From a virus (Duplodnaviria; Heunggongvirae; Uroviricota; Caudoviricetes), in IMG/VR virus record IMGVR_UViG_3300014205_000184, positions 3,162 to 67,161 of that record: 64,000 nucleotides of DNA, one strand, 5' to 3'. How positions within the stretch are numbered: the first letter of the stretch is position 1; every line of letters starts with the position of its first letter. Position numbers and translations under genes: made by a program. Below the pieces are notes generated by a model. That model had not been told where the DNA came from. It was given only the letters and a program-made list of their open reading frames with translations, and did not search any database. Below are positions 2,981 to 60,649 of this stretch, one piece after another.

Positions 2981-2993
2981 AAATGAGGAGTGT

Positions 2994-3302
2994 ATGTACG
3001 AACTAATGAGGATTAGTGAAGATGAGTTTCATGTAATTAAGTTTGACCATGGTATGTTCCCCGAGCAGGATTATAGTGTAGTAAAGAAGGGTGTGATAAT
3101 ATCGTGCAATTGCATAGCGGGAAAGATACATAAGGTGTGTAAACACGGAGAATGGGTAAAGAGCGTGTTAAAAGGAAAAGTGAATGAGTTACCTGAGGGG
3201 GTGAAGTTAGTCAGGCAAGTGGATGGGGTTAAGATACGGGATAATTTCTTAAAGAATTTATTAAAAGTAAAAGAAATGAAAAAGAGGAAGGTGAAGGTAT
3301 GA
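2994..3302 (+). CDS. Hypothetical protein
   Basis: RBS GAGGAG. 102 aa. Lys-rich C-terminus. Confidence 0.5.
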   Translation: MYELMRISEDEFHVIKFDHGMFPEQDYSVVKKGVIISCNCIAGKIHKVCKHGEWVKSVLKGKVNELPEGVKLVRQVDGVKIRDNFLKNLLKVKEMKKRKVKV

Positions 3303-25654: not shown

Positions 25655-26624
25655 GAATGTATATAAGAGGTCAAGGCTGTGTGAGTTAGACTTTCCGTAT
25701 GACCCATTAACACTTGAATTTTATGAGTTTCAAAAAATATGTTTTGGTGATGTAACTTATACAAAAACATTTTTATGGGATACCCATAACTTTCACAGAA
25801 TTTGTGGGGGGAAGAAGTTTCTAGATATTACCAAAGATGATGTGATTAAGTATAAAAACTTTCTAGAATCGTCAAATCCAAATGGACGAGTATCTAATAG
25901 ATTGCGTAATTACTATAAGGTAAGAGCATTTTTTATATGGTTGAGAAACGAGAAGCAATACCCAATATCAGATGAGGTTGTAGATGAGTTCGTGAAAAGA
26001 GAAGAGTATACTAGACCACCAACTAATAAGTATTATAAAGACATAAGAAGACAAAAGAAGATTGTTGATTTAGGGCAAGTAAACGAAAAAGCTAGTGCGT
26101 TATGGTATTTAATCTTTTCTACAGGGTTACATTTTAAAGAGATTGTTCAGATTAAAAGAGAACATTTACAGTTGGAGCATTGTAGAATACTCACATTTTC
26201 AAGTAAAGGCGAAAAGAAACTCAGATTTATATTACCTGAATGTCGGGATGCGATAAGATTGTATTTACTTAAAGAAACAGTGAATAGTGAGTATCTTTTC
26301 CATGACGCTAACGGTAACAAATCACCATATCATATACTTAAAGATGCGTTTGATACCGTGGTGAGAAAATCAGATAGTAAGTTTTGTATTACAAGCCAAA
26401 AATTCAGAGAAATAGTCACGGTATTATTTTTAAAGAGTGGTATGGATTTAATGTGGGCTAAATATCTTCTGGGGGTTAGTCTAAAGAAAATTCTTCAACT
26501 AAGAAATGCATCGGATTTTAAGATAAGCCCGAGTAGAGAGTATACAAAGTATATAGGAATGCTGTATCAAACGCAACTTTATAAAAAGGTAAAACATGAC
26601 AGACCAGAGACCAAAAACATTTGA
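25647..26624 (+). CDS. Tyrosine-recombinase (phage integrase family)-like protein with degenerate catalytic motifs
   Basis: N-terminal SAM-like domain. The core LWYLIFSTGLHFKEIVQIKREHL...KLRFILPE and the C-terminal LLGVSL...SREYTKY follow the integrase boxes. The catalytic R/H positions are substituted (GLH, QKFRE). Confidence 0.45.
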   Translation: MHRNVYKRSRLCELDFPYDPLTLEFYEFQKICFGDVTYTKTFLWDTHNFHRICGGKKFLDITKDDVIKYKNFLESSNPNGRVSNRLRNYYKVRAFFIWLRNEKQYPISDEVVDEFVKREEYTRPPTNKYYKDIRRQKKIVDLGQVNEKASALWYLIFSTGLHFKEIVQIKREHLQLEHCRILTFSSKGEKKLRFILPECRDAIRLYLLKETVNSEYLFHDANGNKSPYHILKDAFDTVVRKSDSKFCITSQKFREIVTVLFLKSGMDLMWAKYLLGVSLKKILQLRNASDFKISPSREYTKYIGMLYQTQLYKKVKHDRPETKNI

Positions 26625-27573
26625 TGATTTTATAACAAAATCAAATGAGCAGGCTGTTAAAATTTTACGGGATACCGTGAATGCGTGTAAGATAAAACAA
26701 GTTCCATTACCACATATTTTAATATTTGGACCAGCGGGAACAGGGAAGACAACGTTAGCGAATATATGCGCTAATGAAATAGGGAATGTAAGTTTCATAG
26801 ACACGATAGGTTCAGAGTTTAGAAACCAAAAAGATATTATAAAATATTTAATAAAGGTTGCTTCTGAGCAAGACCATGATAAGCGAGTAATATTTTTTAT
26901 AGATGAGGTGCACGATTTAGGTAAAGGGAATATTCAAGAAACGCTGTGGTATCCTGTACTTGAAGATTTTAAGTTTCATCATAATCTAAAAGGTGAGCTT
27001 ATAGATGATTGGTTGATACAAAGTAATATTTTAAAGCTTGAACCATTTACGATAATAGGTGCTACAACAGACCCAGCTTTATTAAAACCTTCTATGCGTG
27101 ACAGATTTCTTGTTCAATGCACATTAAGGGCGTATAGTACTGATGACCTATTTAAAGTTATTAGATTTACGGTAAGTCAACGAGGGTTTAATATTACAGA
27201 TAAAGCCGCTATAACAATAGCGCAGTGTTGCAGAGGTAACCCTAGAATAGGTGTTAACTTGGTGTTAGCTTGTGATAATAAAAGAGTTGTGCAGAGCGGG
27301 AAGATTATCACTAAGGAGATAGTTGAGTGTGTGTTGCATGACTTAAAGATAGATAAGAATGGTCTTAATCAAAATGATTTAGTTATACTTAGAACACTTA
27401 AAAACTCTCCAAAAGGTGTAGGTATAAGCACATTAGCTGGGATTGTGAATTTAGATAGAATAACACTTAGCGATATGCACTTAGACTATTTAGGAAGGAT
27501 GGGGTTACTTATAACTACGCATAGAAGATTTATAACAGATAAAGGAATAAAGTATTTAAGGAGTAAGAGATGA
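26596..27573 (+). CDS. ruvB: RuvB-like AAA+ Holliday-junction branch-migration ATPase
   Basis: Carries RPKTFDDFI, Walker A LIFGPAGTGKTTLANICANE, Walker B IFFIDEVHDL, sensor TIIGATTDPALLKPSMRDRF, and a winged-helix tail GNPRIGVNLV. Confidence 0.7.
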   Translation: MTDQRPKTFDDFITKSNEQAVKILRDTVNACKIKQVPLPHILIFGPAGTGKTTLANICANEIGNVSFIDTIGSEFRNQKDIIKYLIKVASEQDHDKRVIFFIDEVHDLGKGNIQETLWYPVLEDFKFHHNLKGELIDDWLIQSNILKLEPFTIIGATTDPALLKPSMRDRFLVQCTLRAYSTDDLFKVIRFTVSQRGFNITDKAAITIAQCCRGNPRIGVNLVLACDNKRVVQSGKIITKEIVECVLHDLKIDKNGLNQNDLVILRTLKNSPKGVGISTLAGIVNLDRITLSDMHLDYLGRMGLLITTHRRFITDKGIKYLRSKR

Positions 27574-27750: not shown

Positions 27751-28323
27751 ATGGCTGTGCTTTCTTTTGGGAATAGAAAATTACCTAAAGATATAGCGAT
27801 ATTCAATTTACCTAGGTTAATTACATGTACGGACTCAACTGAATTATGCAGGAAAGTGTGCTACGCCAAAAAAGCCGAAAGAGAATGTTTTCCGGCATGT
27901 AAACCACAAAGAATGAGGAACTTATTTCTTAGCTATCGGCATGACTTCGTAGAGTCCATGATAAAAGAAATAAGTGGTAGTGGAAGAAAAAAAGTCAGAA
28001 TACATGAAAGTGGGGATTTTTATAATCAAGAGTATTTAGAAAAGTGGTTTAAGATTATAAGAGCGTTACCAGATGTAATATTCGTAGCGTATACAAAATC
28101 AGTTTTAGAATATAAAAATAAACCCAATAATATGATTTTATTCTTTAGTGCAGATAATTCAACGATGTTATGGAACATGATGTGGTATAAAGAGAATAAA
28201 TATAAGAACGCTATGGCGTATATTGACATGGAAATGGGTGAACATTGCCCCGGTAGTTGTAAAACATGTGATAGATGTTATCATAAAGAAACAGCGGTTG
28301 ACACAGTATTTAAACAGCATTAA
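27751..28323 (+). CDS. DUF5131 (phage Gp37/Gp68 family)-like protein
   Basis: Carries CTDSTELCRKVCYA (the C...C...CYA motif) plus KVRIHESGDFYNQEYLEKWFKIIRALPDVIFVAYTKS, which matches the family core. Confidence 0.5.
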   Translation: MAVLSFGNRKLPKDIAIFNLPRLITCTDSTELCRKVCYAKKAERECFPACKPQRMRNLFLSYRHDFVESMIKEISGSGRKKVRIHESGDFYNQEYLEKWFKIIRALPDVIFVAYTKSVLEYKNKPNNMILFFSADNSTMLWNMMWYKENKYKNAMAYIDMEMGEHCPGSCKTCDRCYHKETAVDTVFKQH

Positions 28324-28337
28324 ACTAAAGGAGATTT

Positions 28338-29042
28338 ATGTTTAAGAAGTTAATACAAAAGTTACGCAATAGAAGTAAGTATGCTTTTAAGTCTGGGTGG
28401 GGGAATGTAGCTACCCCATTATCGCAATTAGCAGTAGATATTTCCAGTCCAGGCCCTAATCAAATAATACAATGGAGTAATGGAACTGTTGGATTTTCAC
28501 CCGATATGCCATTAGATAATCGTATAGATAAAAAACCCGTTGAAGTTTATCGTGAGATTGTATCTGAAATACCAAAGATAAATCTATCCGATTTAGATGG
28601 ACAGATTAAACTAGTTCGTAAACGGCTTAACATGTTCAGTGAATTGGGATTAAGTGCTGGTGATGAAAAGGAGGCGTTAATATATCTTAATGCTAGAAAA
28701 AAATTAAGTAAAGTTGTCACTAAGTTTGCGTGGGCGACAACTAACCAAAAATTAATTGAGAGATTATGTTCAATATATAAACTTCGCATTGTGATTTTTG
28801 ATAGTTATTACAAGAATGTTCCAATGGAAGCTGTTGATGAACTTGAGAAATTTCTAGATGCATGGGTTTTAGTGCGAAAAGATAAACCACAATTTAAGCT
28901 CATTATAGATGAAGGTGGAAAAGAAACAAAGAAAGACCCGATATTATTAGCTCCATCACCATTTGGAAAATGGTATTATATATTAGGGGCGTGGGATAAG
29001 GAAGTTGAAATAGTCGATGATTTAATATATAACGGTAAATAA
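28338..29042 (+). CDS. Hypothetical protein
   Basis: RBS AAAGGAGAT. 234 aa. Confidence 0.55.
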   Translation: MFKKLIQKLRNRSKYAFKSGWGNVATPLSQLAVDISSPGPNQIIQWSNGTVGFSPDMPLDNRIDKKPVEVYREIVSEIPKINLSDLDGQIKLVRKRLNMFSELGLSAGDEKEALIYLNARKKLSKVVTKFAWATTNQKLIERLCSIYKLRIVIFDSYYKNVPMEAVDELEKFLDAWVLVRKDKPQFKLIIDEGGKETKKDPILLAPSPFGKWYYILGAWDKEVEIVDDLIYNGK

Positions 29043-29100
29043 GGAGTCTACATTATGAATCGCATATTAGGAGGGAAATTTGTGATGACCAGAGGTGAAA

Positions 29101-29670
29101 AATGAATTATTTTTTCACATCTGACCATCACCTCTGATTGGGCACTACAATATAATCCGGTACTGTAATCGTCCATTTAAAGATTTAGAGCATATGAACT
29201 CGGAGATTATACGTAGACACAATGAACGTGTAAAACCAGAAGATATCGTATACTTCTTAGGTGATTTTTGTTTTCGTTCTAAATCGGAACGAGGCGAAGG
29301 TGACCAGTATAAAGCTGATTACTATTTAAAACATCTTAACGGTAAATTTATCTTTATACAAGGTAACCACGATAGAAACAATACTGTTAAGACTAATATA
29401 ATGAAACTGGTTATACATCATGCAGGATACGATATCTGTCTTTTACATAACCCAGAATATGCAGATATGAGATATAATATTAACTTTGTTGGGCATGTAC
29501 ATGAAAAATGGATGTGTAAAAGAGTAAGAAGCGGAGAAACGTTTACTGATTTAATTAATGTAGGATGTGATGTGCATAACTTTTATCCTCAAACATTTGA
29601 AGATTTAATGGGGAAGTATCATCAATGGAGGAGAAATGAAGACAAGAAAATACTCAATAAAACCAACTAA
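29101..29670 (+). CDS. Calcineurin-like metallophosphoesterase interrupted by an in-frame TGA at 29134-29136 (possible pseudogene, recoding, or a sequencing error)
   Basis: MNYFFTSDHHL-[TGA]-IGHYNIIRYCNRPFKDLEHMNSEIIRRHNERVKPEDIVYFLGDF...GNHD...GHVHE. The conserved N-terminal DxH motif lies upstream of the stop in the same frame. Confidence 0.5.
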
Positions 29671-58424: not shown

Positions 58425-58847
58425 ATGAATAAAGTTAAACCAATAGAAAGAGACGCTGTTGAAAGAGGTTGCACGATAAAACATAAAACCGCATGTACAA
58501 AATTATTTATAACTGTAAATCATAATTCAAATAACGAAATTTTTGAGTGCTTCATCACCCCAGGGAAAGAGGGTGGATGTCATGCTTGTTTATCTGCAAT
58601 AGGTGCGCTAATATCATTGGCACTAAGATATAATGTACCAATTAACGATATTATAAAACAATTAAAAGGAATTAGATGCAAGGCATGCACTATGAGTTTA
58701 CATAATGAATTGGAACAAATAAAGCAAAAAAATAATGGTGTATTGCAAAAAGATTTTAAATCAGAGATACATTTTAGTTGTCCGGACGCAATTTCAAAAG
58801 CACTGTTATTTTCACATAACAAGATGAAAGATAATGAAAAAAAGTAA
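58425..58847 (+). CDS. Hypothetical protein
   Basis: 140 aa. Confidence 0.5.
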   Translation: MNKVKPIERDAVERGCTIKHKTACTKLFITVNHNSNNEIFECFITPGKEGGCHACLSAIGALISLALRYNVPINDIIKQLKGIRCKACTMSLHNELEQIKQKNNGVLQKDFKSEIHFSCPDAISKALLFSHNKMKDNEKK

Positions 58848-59547
58848 GATAAACAGATGCTTGGATTGTAGATGTAAAATTACTAAAAATGCAAAAAGAT
58901 GCATTGGCTGTGCAAGAAAAATACTTGGCGTAAAATTATCATTAAAATTTAAAGGTGAGAATGGTCCAAACTATAAAGATGGAAGAAGTCTAAAAAAATA
59001 TTATTACTATTGTGTCGATTGTGGTAAAAAATTAAACAGTCACTCTTTCTGGAGTAAATCTAAAAGATGTGCACATTGCTGTAAGGTTGGGGAAAATAAC
59101 CCCGCATACAAACATGGTAGAACATTAGTGAAATCTTATTGTAGCGATTGCGATAAACTATTAAACAGTCAGGCTTTTCTATATGGCCACAAAAAATGTT
59201 TACAGTGTTCTTTGTTAGATAAAAATATGAAGCAAAAAGTATTTGACACCGACATAGAATTAAAATTTAAAGATGAGCTGATAAAAAGGGGCATATCTTT
59301 TAAGCATCCATATAGGATTAAGAGTCACCCCGTAGATTTTTATATTCCAAGATATAACTTAGTAGTTGAATGCGATGGTTATTACTGGCATCATAAGCCT
59401 GGCGCTGAAGAGAAAGATGCAAGACATAATACAATGATGCGCAATAAAGGTTATTTCGTCAAAAGATTAAAAGGTGAAAATATATTAAAAGAAAAAATTA
59501 ATTACGATAAAATGTTTGAACGATATAAACAACTAATAGGAGGATAA
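58834..59547 (+). CDS. Free-standing homing-endonuclease-like protein (zinc-finger repeats plus a Vsr/DUF559-like nuclease)
   Basis: Repeats C.DC...LNS..F....C..C. C-terminal HPVDFYIPRYNLVVECDGYYWH. Confidence 0.55.
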   Translation: MKKSKINRCLDCRCKITKNAKRCIGCARKILGVKLSLKFKGENGPNYKDGRSLKKYYYYCVDCGKKLNSHSFWSKSKRCAHCCKVGENNPAYKHGRTLVKSYCSDCDKLLNSQAFLYGHKKCLQCSLLDKNMKQKVFDTDIELKFKDELIKRGISFKHPYRIKSHPVDFYIPRYNLVVECDGYYWHHKPGAEEKDARHNTMMRNKGYFVKRLKGENILKEKINYDKMFERYKQLIGG

Positions 59548-59551
59548 AATT

Positions 59552-60649
59552 GTGAGTAAAATTTACAAAAACAACAAGTGTTTAAACTGCGGGGAAATCT
59601 ACACTGGGGCTGGCGGTAAATACTGTTCTCAAAAATGTTCAATTTTAGCTCGACAAAACAACAAAACATCATCTAATTCTAATTCTCCAATATTAAGAAT
59701 GGAGATTATTAAACAAATACGAGATGAGGGGAGATATTTATCGGATATAGCAAAAAGCATTAATATAAACGAATCAATTGTTGCTGATGTCGTAAAATCT
59801 TTAAAGAATTCAGGTTACACGATTGAAACACAAGGTAGTTTCGTTAAGTTATTAGACGGAATACCAGTCGAAAAAAATTCTAAAATAAAACATAAATTTG
59901 ACGTTGGAATAGAGCATGAATTTGGGGTTGTATCTGATACACATTTAGGGAGTTATAATGAACGTCTCGACGTTTTGGAACATGCTTATGATGATTTTAA
60001 AAATAGAAAAATAGAAACAGTCTTTCATGCGGGGAACATTGTTGAGGGTGAAGCAAATTTTAATAAATATGACATAAGAGTGCATGGTATAACAGACCAA
60101 ACACTCTATTGTATAGACCACTATCCACAAAGAGAAGGAATAACTACCAATTTTATAACTGCGGATGACCACGAGGGATGGTGGTTTCAAAGAGAAGGTA
60201 TAGACTTTGGTAGATACTTACAACTCGAAGCCTCTGAGCATGGAAGAAAAGATTTAATACACTTAGGATATCAGGAAGTTGATGTGGAATTAAAGTCCGA
60301 AAAAGGTAGTAGCATTATGAGATTAGTGCACCCTGGTGGAGGAAGTTCATATGCTATTAGTTATGCTCTTCAGAAACTTGCCGAATCCTACCAAGGGGGA
60401 GAGAAGCCAAATGTTATTTTGTCGGGGCATTGGCATAAATCCGGAGTATTTTACCCTAGAGAAATACATAGTGTGCTATGTGGTTGTGTCTGTGACCAAA
60501 GTAGATTTATGAGAAAACTAAAATTACAAGCTCATGTAGGTTATTATATTATTAAAATAAAACAGTCAGATATCGGTATAATCACAGAGTTCACCGCGAC
60601 ATTTAAACCTTTCTTTGATAGAAACTTCTATATAAAGAAAAGCATATAA
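59552..60649 (+). CDS. Calcineurin-like metallophosphoesterase with an N-terminal zinc ribbon and HTH
   Basis: Carries CLNCG...CSQKC, an HTH LSDIAKSININESIVADVV, and then FGVVSDTHLGS...VFHAGNIVEG. Confidence 0.55.
   Translation: MSKIYKNNKCLNCGEIYTGAGGKYCSQKCSILARQNNKTSSNSNSPILRMEIIKQIRDEGRYLSDIAKSININESIVADVVKSLKNSGYTIETQGSFVKLLDGIPVEKNSKIKHKFDVGIEHEFGVVSDTHLGSYNERLDVLEHAYDDFKNRKIETVFHAGNIVEGEANFNKYDIRVHGITDQTLYCIDHYPQREGITTNFITADDHEGWWFQREGIDFGRYLQLEASEHGRKDLIHLGYQEVDVELKSEKGSSIMRLVHPGGGSSYAISYALQKLAESYQGGEKPNVILSGHWHKSGVFYPREIHSVLCGCVCDQSRFMRKLKLQAHVGYYIIKIKQSDIGIITEFTATFKPFFDRNFYIKKSI

Follow-up and report, generated by a model that had tools for sequence, protein, structure and literature searches.

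How can a phage enzyme be made as one chain if its first eleven codons run into a stop codon and the rest of its coding sequence continues in a different frame? The question is raised by a gene at positions 29102-29670 (+ strand) of a 64,000 nt stretch of a Caudoviricetes genome, IMG/VR record IMGVR_UViG_3300014205_000184 (positions 3,162 to 67,161 of the record), which is called the window below. By its sequence motifs, the gene is that of a calcineurin-like phage metallophosphoesterase (MPE). The interruption probably represents a copy of a recoding cassette that recurs at the MPE codons for D-x-H and G-H and is carried by free-standing HNH homing endonucleases, a reading that draws on the comparison of related sequences.

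Organization of the Interrupted Gene

The gene consists of two open reading frames (ORFs) joined at a stop codon:

29102-29137, + strand: ORF1, MNYFFTSDHHL followed by TGA; the true N-terminus of the enzyme, with motif I residues D8 and H10
29132-29137, + strand: shifty stop, consisting of the take-off codon CTC (Leu11, 29132-29134) and TGA (29135-29137)
29137-29670, + strand: ORF2, (I)GHYNIIRYCNRPF...GDF...GNHD...GHVHE..., 177 codons followed by TAA

An earlier reading, made from the letters of this sequence alone (the sequence-only reading), had described a 5' end encoding MNYFFTSDHHL, a TGA at 29134-29136 and the rest of the enzyme in the same frame. The 5' end stands, with its ATG at 29102-29104, and ORF1 agrees with the family consensus MxYFFTSDxHL at all conserved positions; the TGA is located at 29135-29137. 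The remainder, IGHYNIIRYCNRPF...GDF...GNHD...GHVHE, does follow immediately as that of a conserved phage metallophosphoesterase and ends at the TAA at 29668-29670, but it lies in the -1/+2 frame relative to ORF1, beginning with ATT at 29137-29139, which overlaps the A of TGA. Past the TGA, the ORF1 frame reads TTG GGC ACT ACA ATA TAA (LGTTI and a stop), and the +1 frame at the junction reads DWALQYNPVL and a stop. Since the frames of ORF1 and ORF2 differ, the interruption is of the frameshift type and is not an in-frame stop.

ORF2 (GC content of 34%) matched PHROG 547 'phosphoesterase' with E = 1e-37 and Pfam Metallophos_2 with 21 bits, which is under the 27-bit cut-off; the nearest solved structure was 1xm7 (E = 4.5e-5). 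ORF2 retains all 20 family-invariant residues, and the invariant G54, D55, G88, N89, H90, H116, H132 and H134 of the GD, GNH[DE], H and GHxH motifs are all present, while D8 and H10 of motif I are encoded in ORF1, in another frame than the rest of the protein. The comparison of orthologs at the junction that the sequence-only reading had proposed was informative: D-x-H-[L/F]-[G/N/S]-H was found without an extra residue in 118/118 full-length homolog N-termini and also in an alignment of 39 homologs. Therefore, the window has 5 extra nt between CTC (Leu11) and GGG (Gly). Contigs of the Logan assembly of SRR6484325 and of JGI metagenome 3300037067 were 100% identical to the window over 2-6 kb, the site included. 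Gene callers annotate a 158 aa ORF from the ATG at 29194 (P0001); Met32 is nearly invariant in the family.

A DNA search of the region against 50,697 GenBank phages gave no match, so there are no close relatives for a base-by-base comparison, and in a search of 5.8 billion proteins the best identity, the window's own ORF aside, was 64%. Neither a terminator nor a notable promoter was found at the region, the Rfam search gave only generic hairpin matches below the threshold, and the window was found to contain no tRNA genes.

Recurrence of the Interruption in Related Genes

Out of roughly 800 or more relatives, the best 80 from IMG/VR and the best 80 from metagenomes were surveyed, which gave about 126 non-redundant viral and metagenomic genes. 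Fourteen of these other genes, from at least 12 metagenomes, are interrupted. All 14 interruptions fall within the six codons of D-x-H-x-G-H, the remaining 160 or more codons being open, and they are 1, 2, 6, 7, 8 or 31 nt long. Almost all interrupted genes have an intact gene as their nearest relative, which points to many independent insertions. The junctions of the interrupted genes, with the last good codon, the extra bases and the shift required, are as follows:

L015: CUU-UAA-CUU, +6
L048: CUU-UAA-CUA, +6
L088: CUA-UAA-CUA, +6
L094: CUU-UGA-CUU, +6
L106: CUC-UGA-CGU, +6
L077: UUC-UGA A-UUU, +7
L044: CAU-UAG U-UAU, +7
L053: ACC-UGA AA-ACU, +8
L062: CUU-U AAC, +1
L054 and L064: UUU-C GGN, +1
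L139: UUU-UC GGA, +2
L074: 31 nt insert with its own 8 bp stem-loop and CATGA repeats on both sides, +31

Of the 13 independent junctions, 10 have a stop codon immediately behind the last good codon, compared with a stop-triplet frequency of 8% (binomial p = 2.5e-9); equivalent cassettes carry UAA, UAG, UGA or no stop at this point. In 12 of the 14 relatives, the landing codon matches the take-off codon, exactly or by wobble, and re-pairing of the P-site tRNA there would give back precisely the canonical protein; in L106 (take-off codon CUC), the canonical spacing is restored only with the mismatched landing codon CGU. In L044, ORF1 is longer and starts further upstream, which ruled out a double frameshift as the explanation of that junction.

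The 31 nt interruption of L074 (positions 2985-3020 in IMGVR_UViG_3300033149_001657) reads GGT CATGA[A AGTTAGCTACTATTTAGTAGCTAGC CATGA]G AAT. Its stem-loop is a perfect 8 bp (AGCTACTA/TAGTAGCT), begins at an in-frame TAG and is flanked by the CATGA direct repeats, and this gene is the member of the family most similar to phage T4 gene 60. Its sisters, L054 and L064, have their 1 nt (+1) site a few bases upstream of that of L074.

None of the 76 relatives found in contigs of genomes and metagenome-assembled genomes (MAGs) was interrupted. The closest relatives in these collections (L179-L258) are mostly labelled Candidatus Omnitrophota or Planctomycetia and often lie on short contigs; the labels may hint at the host range or may reflect phage contigs binned into MAGs. 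In addition, two intact IMG/VR genes closest to the interrupted L044 (L045 and L050, gene start near 3001) have FTGCEHYSH instead of FTSDxHxxH. The motif I aspartate is thus replaced in them (G-C-E-H), which makes theirs a naturally occurring variant of this metal-binding motif.

Hairpin Specific to Interrupted Genes

In the minimum free energy (MFE) fold of the window, the start of ORF1 is enclosed in a hairpin with the following arms:

29070-29102, + strand: 5' arm, with a basal GGAGG (29070-29074) and a main arm (29083-29102)
29111-29135, + strand: 3' arm, with 29111-29130 paired to 29083-29102 and CCUCU (29131-29135) paired to GGAGG

A hairpin of 17-22 bp is the MFE fold of every interrupted gene and of no intact one. 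It pairs the 5' untranslated region (UTR), often including the Shine-Dalgarno (SD) sequence, with the whole of ORF1, places the apical loop at the start codon and finishes its 3' arm at or within the take-off codon. In the window, the 5' arm includes the SD-like GAGGTGA (29092-29098), and the 3' arm spans ORF1 codons 4-11, ending at the take-off codon and the first base of the stop, which is the same relative position as in 13 other interrupted genes. The fold has an energy of -26.2 kcal/mol (z = -3.85), and none of 200 shuffled sequences was as stable.

Equal-length segments ending at the take-off codon were then compared between the 14 interrupted and 112 intact genes. The MFE was -25.9 kcal/mol in interrupted genes, -11.6 ± 4.4 kcal/mol in intact ones and -23.8 kcal/mol in the window (p ~5e-9), and the energy of the duplex between the 5' segment and ORF1 was -21.9, -8.4 ± 2.9 and -23.0 kcal/mol, respectively (p ~5e-9). 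Covariation was evaluated in a sequence-only MAFFT alignment of the six Leu-stop-type cassettes, the window included. Of the 21 pairs given by RNAalifold, 8 show compensatory double changes; 92% of the cells pair compared with 79% in shuffled alignments (0/500) and 40-53% in slid registers, and the covariation score was 0.556 versus 0.245.

A 9 bp inverted repeat bracketing the start codon had already been noticed in the sequence-only reading. It exists (CAGAGGTGA at 29090-29098 and TCACCTCTG), although the second arm is located at 29128-29136 and not at 29129-29137. Because ORF1 holds a near-direct repeat (TCACATCTGA at 29115-29124 and TCACCTCTGA at 29128-29137), CAGAGGTGA has two pairing registers 13 nt apart: with 29115-29123, as in the MFE fold, or perfectly with 29128-29136. 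The repeat is one register of the covarying hairpin that is specific to interrupted genes, and in this form the suggestion that it could influence translation was borne out as plausible.

Association with Homing Endonucleases

An ORF of the HNH_3/NUMOD3 or a related His-Me family ends at the start of ORF1 in 8/14 interrupted and in about 3/112 intact loci (Fisher p = 3e-7). The hairpin tracks the interruption and not the endonuclease, since intact genes with an upstream HNH gene have no hairpin and interrupted genes without an HNH gene do have it. A scan with a narrow alignment of the HNH proteins recovered for the most part loci that were already known.

The arrangement of the whole cassette can be seen in a comparison of L106 with its 97% identical intact relative L034. 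The two are 100% identical over the upstream 809 nt, then differ by a 730 nt block in L106, and are 83% identical beyond it. In this block lie the HNH gene, the 5' arm of the hairpin, a recoded ORF1 and TGA CGT. The ORF1 copy of L106 encodes the same peptide as L034 with 9/10 codons synonymously changed. The insert may shield the carrier DNA from the endonuclease of its own cassette (self-immunity), and this heavy synonymous recoding is the one piece of support for self-immunity beyond the analogy with the MobA element of phage T4.

In the window, the place of the endonuclease 3' end in related cassettes is taken by a short upstream ORF (uORF):

29041-29046, + strand: AAGGAG, an SD-like sequence for the uORF, read from the sequence, with an 8 nt spacer to ATG 29055
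29055-29105, + strand: uORF of 16 codons, MNRILGGKFVMTRGEK and a stop, passing through the 5' arm of the hairpin

The uORF stop TGA (29103-29105) shares bases with the ORF1 ATG (ATGA). This overlap is reported here but was left out of the evidence because the conserved Met-Lys/Asn start by itself accounts for part of it. Alignment of the DNA with HNH-bearing cassettes hints at homology of the uORF, and the window copy is best read as an endonuclease-less remnant of a cassette.

Several neighboring features were noted. The AAGGAG overlaps the TAA stop (29040-29042) of an upstream 234 aa gene (28338-29042), whose protein gave no Pfam or PHROG match; its sole relative, L003 (49% identity), does not adjoin a phosphoesterase. 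Just upstream of the locus are also a RuvB-like AAA+ ATPase (26596-27573; RuvB_N, AAA_lid_4 and RuvB_C) and a GP88-family protein (27751-28323). Elsewhere in the window, a 237 aa ORF (58834-59547) has NUMOD3-like repeats (GENGPNYKDGRS and GENNPAYKHGRT) and a Vsr/DUF559-like endonuclease C-terminus, and its PHROG matches are endonuclease, HNH endonuclease and homing endonuclease. It ends 5 nt upstream of a 365 aa gene (59552-60649) with a second metallophosphoesterase-like motif, VVSDTHLGS, which weakly matches PHROG 'DNA repair exonuclease' and looks uninterrupted. The region 58834-60649 may thus represent another homing endonuclease beside another phosphoesterase-fold gene in the same phage.

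In L106 (positions 840-880 of metagenome contig Ga0265297_10008878), GACCTAAATGTAGGTC lies just upstream of the HNH gene, beside an extended -10-like TGGTATAAT. Read on the opposite strand, it is identical to the uninterrupted target GACCTACATTTAGGTC (codons D-L-H-L-G) of the intact L034, and it could be an operator for autorepression by the endonuclease or a scar of insertion. Autorepression through an operator is known for I-TevI.

Selection on Interrupted Genes

L054 and L064, which share the +1 site UUU C GGN, were compared to evaluate selection. In ORF2, synonymous divergence is saturated (pS 0.79) with pN 0.14, and ORF1 has four synonymous and no non-synonymous differences; L064 is already without the endonuclease. 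Conservation also extends to the GHxNIIxYCNRPF segment, which lies between the interruption and the first internal Met without a start codon of its own and must therefore be reached from ORF1. Judged by these substitution patterns, the interrupted relatives are under purifying selection and are genes in use. Selection on both ORFs of L054 and L064 lends indirect support to the proposed single polypeptide that would join ORF1 to ORF2.

Proposed Mechanism and Decoding of the Window Copy

A complete cassette would consist of an HNH gene with its stop overlapping the ORF1 start, a recoded MPE copy of about 11 codons (ORF1), a stop or rare codon and then a few extra bases that close with a match to the last codon of ORF1. 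The hairpin of 17-22 bp would be formed between the 3' end of the endonuclease gene or the 5' UTR and ORF1 and would end at the take-off codon. The extra bases would spoil the endonuclease target site and so provide self-immunity, as in T4 MobA/gene 60. From this anatomy we infer the following course of translation. Ribosomes finishing the upstream ORF would open the hairpin and begin ORF1; 11 codons on, they would stall at the UGA in the A site while the P site holds Leu-tRNA. The freed 5' arm would then re-pair with ORF1 as it leaves the ribosome, so that the mRNA is pulled forward and codon-anticodon pairing is competed with. The peptidyl-tRNA would un-pair and re-pair 1-31 nt downstream, where decoding would resume. 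The window copy has lost the endonuclease, with the uORF and its ATGA overlap in that place, and retains the hairpin together with the CUC-UGA take-off.

The candidate landing codons of the window (29134-29140), proposed from codon-anticodon rules, are as follows:

29134-29136, + strand: CTG, +2; good re-pairing of tRNA-Leu, followed by ATT (Ile) and GGG
29137-29139, + strand: ATT, +5; canonical L-G-H, poor pairing
29138-29140, + strand: TTG, +6; vestigial Leu landing codon, one base out of register

Being one base short of the Leu-stop-Leu design, the window needs a +2 slip or a +5 hop for the full-length enzyme. A candidate +2 slip from CUC to CUG, which overlaps the take-off codon, would give ...DHHL-I-GH... 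(188 aa), and a candidate +5 hop would give the canonical ...DHHL-GH... (187 aa). The +2 design is present in the family (L139), and L106 shows that an imperfect landing match occurs. Recoding by +2 or +5 in the window would probably be of low efficiency, and for this individual copy we would put its chances between slightly below and somewhat above even. The copy is an atypical member of the family and may be decaying.

A number of points weigh against the proposed recoding, both for this copy and for the family. The +5 landing codon AUU pairs at 2/3 positions, with a mismatch to tRNA-Leu at position 1, and the +2 slip adds an Ile where 0/118 homologs have an extra residue. The window sequence, CTC TGA TTG GG-CAC, shows a 1 nt gap relative to the Leu-stop-Leu cassettes, apparently a secondary deletion. 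A search of IMG/VR with the degenerate pattern Leu-stop-(0-8 nt)-Gly-His found only L015 and L048 again and no second 5 nt case, and the window gene has no close relative (best identity as given above, 64%) in which the 5 nt form could be conserved. In addition, the CGU of L106 makes the matched-codon rule less than absolute. No endonuclease gene adjoins ORF1 in the window, only the 16-codon uORF, which has no HNH match; a protein profile of the HNH C-terminus scored the uORF at E = 7 (rank 16 of 2,886 window segments), which is no statistical support, and the uORF is not claimed as an HNH remnant. It is also conceivable that the main effect of the hairpin is on initiation and not on the hop. 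Lists of 80 best relatives under-sample genes broken in the middle of the ORF, a bias that inflates the positional enrichment to some extent and on which the junction signatures do not depend. Finally, the whole case is computational, built from sequence.

Alternative Explanations

The inactivated pseudogene that the sequence-only reading had listed first is a live rival for this copy, and we regard it as a possible but clearly less likely account. A former CTC TGA TTG GGN CAC cassette would have lost one base, leaving the hairpin and the uORF as leftovers in a very young pseudogene. The 1 nt gap relative to five Leu-stop-Leu cassettes, with a Leu codon (TTG) directly after the stop in the ORF1 frame, fits such a loss, and so does the fact that the window, like L106, does not restore the spacing by a matching or wobble-matching landing codon as 12 of the 14 other cassettes do. 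No homolog has an extra residue between DxH and H, and the endonuclease is already gone. Yet ORF2 is open over 177 codons at 34% GC with all invariant residues kept, the hairpin is intact (z = -3.85), the +2 move from CUC to CUG offers near-perfect re-pairing in a design that L139 shares, and the sequence is identical in two samples; there are no close relatives by which a crippled copy could be dated. If the missing base were instead an artifact of base calling or assembly at the G run, the actual sequence would be CTC TGA TTG GGG CAC, an ordinary Leu-stop-Leu cassette, and one added G indeed yields the exact design of L015, L048, L088 and L094. This is unlikely: the SRR6484325 Logan and JGI 3300037067 contigs are 100% identical including the site, and a run of 3-4 G is atypical as a site of short-read error. 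Even if it were true, the sub-type would change and the cassette reading would stay. An account with still less to recommend it is a mutational hotspot, in which the quasi-palindrome provokes template-switch indels at the end of the 3' arm and the interrupted genes are independent dead alleles without recoding. Every interruption does lie at the 3' end of the hairpin, and the extra bases of the window extend the complementarity with the CAGAG of the 5' arm; but there is no intact gene with the hairpin and hence no pool of pre-mutation alleles, and stops right after the last good codon together with matched landing codons are not expected from template switching. Moreover, L054 and L064 have kept the same frameshift through saturated synonymous divergence with dN << dS in both ORFs, and L106 gained the hairpin arm, the recoded ORF1, the insert and the HNH gene as one 730 nt block.

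The remaining accounts concern what is translated from the locus. Re-initiation at ATG 29194, another option of the sequence-only reading, would mean a split or truncated enzyme in which only the 158 aa ORF (or ORF2) is made and ORF1 is irrelevant or a leader. Gene callers give exactly this ORF (P0001), and Met32 is nearly invariant, but the product would lose two metal ligands (D8 and H10) along with the H, I, I and R that are invariant in GHxNIIxYCNRPF. No start codon lies between the interruption and Met32, yet the window and interrupted relatives that diverged long ago still conserve the segment, and purifying selection acts on ORF1. Orthologs that naturally start at the downstream Met, which would have made the first codons fortuitous, were not found among the homologs: P0118, considered as an N-terminally truncated case, turned out to be an intact gene with a mis-called start. 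We therefore consider a split enzyme very improbable. The least credible account is UGA read-through, selenocysteine insertion or a reassigned code. A UGA inside a conserved gene invites it, and some candidate-phylum hosts reassign UGA. As ORF2 is out of the UGA frame, read-through and selenocysteine are excluded (read-through would end after LGTTI); relatives use UAA, UAG, UGA or no stop at the equivalent site, and the window has no tRNA genes. The sequence-only reading had rightly set code reassignment aside, for which the differing frame and the mixed stops now give the grounds, while its programmed read-through fails by frame and survives only in the broader sense of programmed recoding, as a forward slip or hop at a shifty stop, the closest of its four options. 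Two further candidates were rejected. Transcriptional slippage on the T6 run (29110-29115) would bring the shifted frame to the TGA at 29122-29124, and an RF2-type +1 frameshift does not suit the window, which needs +2/-1 or +5 and has no SD just upstream of the site.

Comparison with Known Recoding Systems

To our knowledge, programmed bypassing has essentially one well-studied natural example in bacteria and phages, T4 gene 60, in addition to the byps of yeast mitochondria. T4 gene 60 reportedly contains a 50 nt translational bypass with a MobA HNH cassette (Huang et al. 1988; Bonocora et al. 2011), and the byps of Magnusiomyces mitochondria are said to be mobile bypassed inserts (Lang et al. 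2014). In the MobA element, an HNH gene is combined with a homologous region that the element itself encodes and with a bypass insert that prevents self-cleavage; later loss of the endonuclease, with the bypass retained, is frequent, and such elements were found only in Topo2L/topoisomerase genes (Manning & Atkins, bioRxiv 10.1101/2022.08.31.505936). For gene 60, mRNA pairing on exit from the ribosome was proposed as the driver of forward bypassing (bioRxiv 10.1101/2024.12.09.627546), which agrees with the part suggested above for the MPE hairpin. The recoding cassette proposed for the MPE genes is similar to the gene 60/MobA system in several respects: an HNH homing endonuclease is located immediately upstream (in related cassettes), the cassette comes with a recoded version of the conserved coding segment next to it (cf. 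homR of MobA), and a non-coding insert lies in a highly conserved stretch that codes for the metal site. The take-off codon is followed by a stop or a rare codon, its match with the landing codon is seen in most relatives, and a 5' stem-loop is present; insertions occurred repeatedly and independently at one site, and the endonuclease is often lost while the interruption is kept. The differences are also clear. The target is a metallophosphoesterase and not topoisomerase II, the inserts are 1-31 nt (5 nt in the window) compared with 50 nt, and the site is at codon 11, so that there is no long nascent-peptide signal. The MPE hairpin encloses the SD and the start codon, with the entire ORF1 as its 3' arm, the family includes overlapping-codon +1 and +2 frameshifts besides hops, and no sequence similarity between the cassettes was seen.

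The matched Leu codons that flank the stop resemble synthetic stop-hops. A 2016 review (PMC5009743) knew of no natural in-frame stop-hop; as cited there, synthetic stop-hops work in E. coli (Weiss, Dunn, Atkins, Gesteland 1987), with CUU UAG CUA decoding 9 nt as one amino acid, and +2, +5 and +6 events are documented at synthetic shifty stops with about 1% efficiency and no dedicated stimulator. Unlike these, the putative MPE hops are natural and recurrent and are accompanied by a covarying hairpin. The prfB (RF2) +1 frameshift, CUU UGA C, also involves a shifty stop with tRNA-Leu in the P site early in the ORF, and the relative L062 (CUU UAA C) likewise needs +1. In contrast to prfB, the window needs +2 or +5, has no SD 3 nt upstream of the shift site and has a take-off region complementary to the gene's own SD, and no autoregulatory logic is apparent. 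Short UUA inserts of 10 nt were described in the terminase gene of Streptomyces phage phiHau3 (PMC10732093). These inserts and the byps resemble the MPE cassette in that essential genes carry short non-coding inserts whose bypass is proposed or shown, with a slow A-site codon, RNA structure nearby and matched landing codons; they differ in hosts, genes and triggers (rare UUA or unassigned codons) and are without linkage to homing endonucleases.

Significance of the Finding

No literature on recoding in phosphoesterase genes was found. Shorter counterparts of bypassing have long been expected according to reviews. The sequence features suggest that the MPE cassette is a natural system of the same kind as T4 gene 60, the second such system. 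On balance, we favor the view that MPE genes are the target of an undescribed family of mobile cassettes combining HNH endonucleases with recoding, in which breaks of 1-31 nt are crossed by hairpin-driven short hops or forward frameshifts, among them the first Leu-stop-Leu stop-hops known from nature. Such cassettes would be an independent second case of the gene 60/MobA type, with the window as an endonuclease-less +2/+5 variant.

The family would then provide a natural series of hop lengths (+1, +2, +5, +6, +7, +8 and +31) in one take-off context, with a simple 5' hairpin and an 11-codon ORF, and a small reporter could address refolding behind the ribosome, the pairing of the landing codon and the minimal nascent peptide. 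Calls of 'truncated' phage phosphoesterases, such as the 158 aa ORF here, may be recoded full-length genes, which is a warning for annotation. Moreover, the alliance of a homing endonuclease with translational recoding would not be unique to topoisomerase genes.

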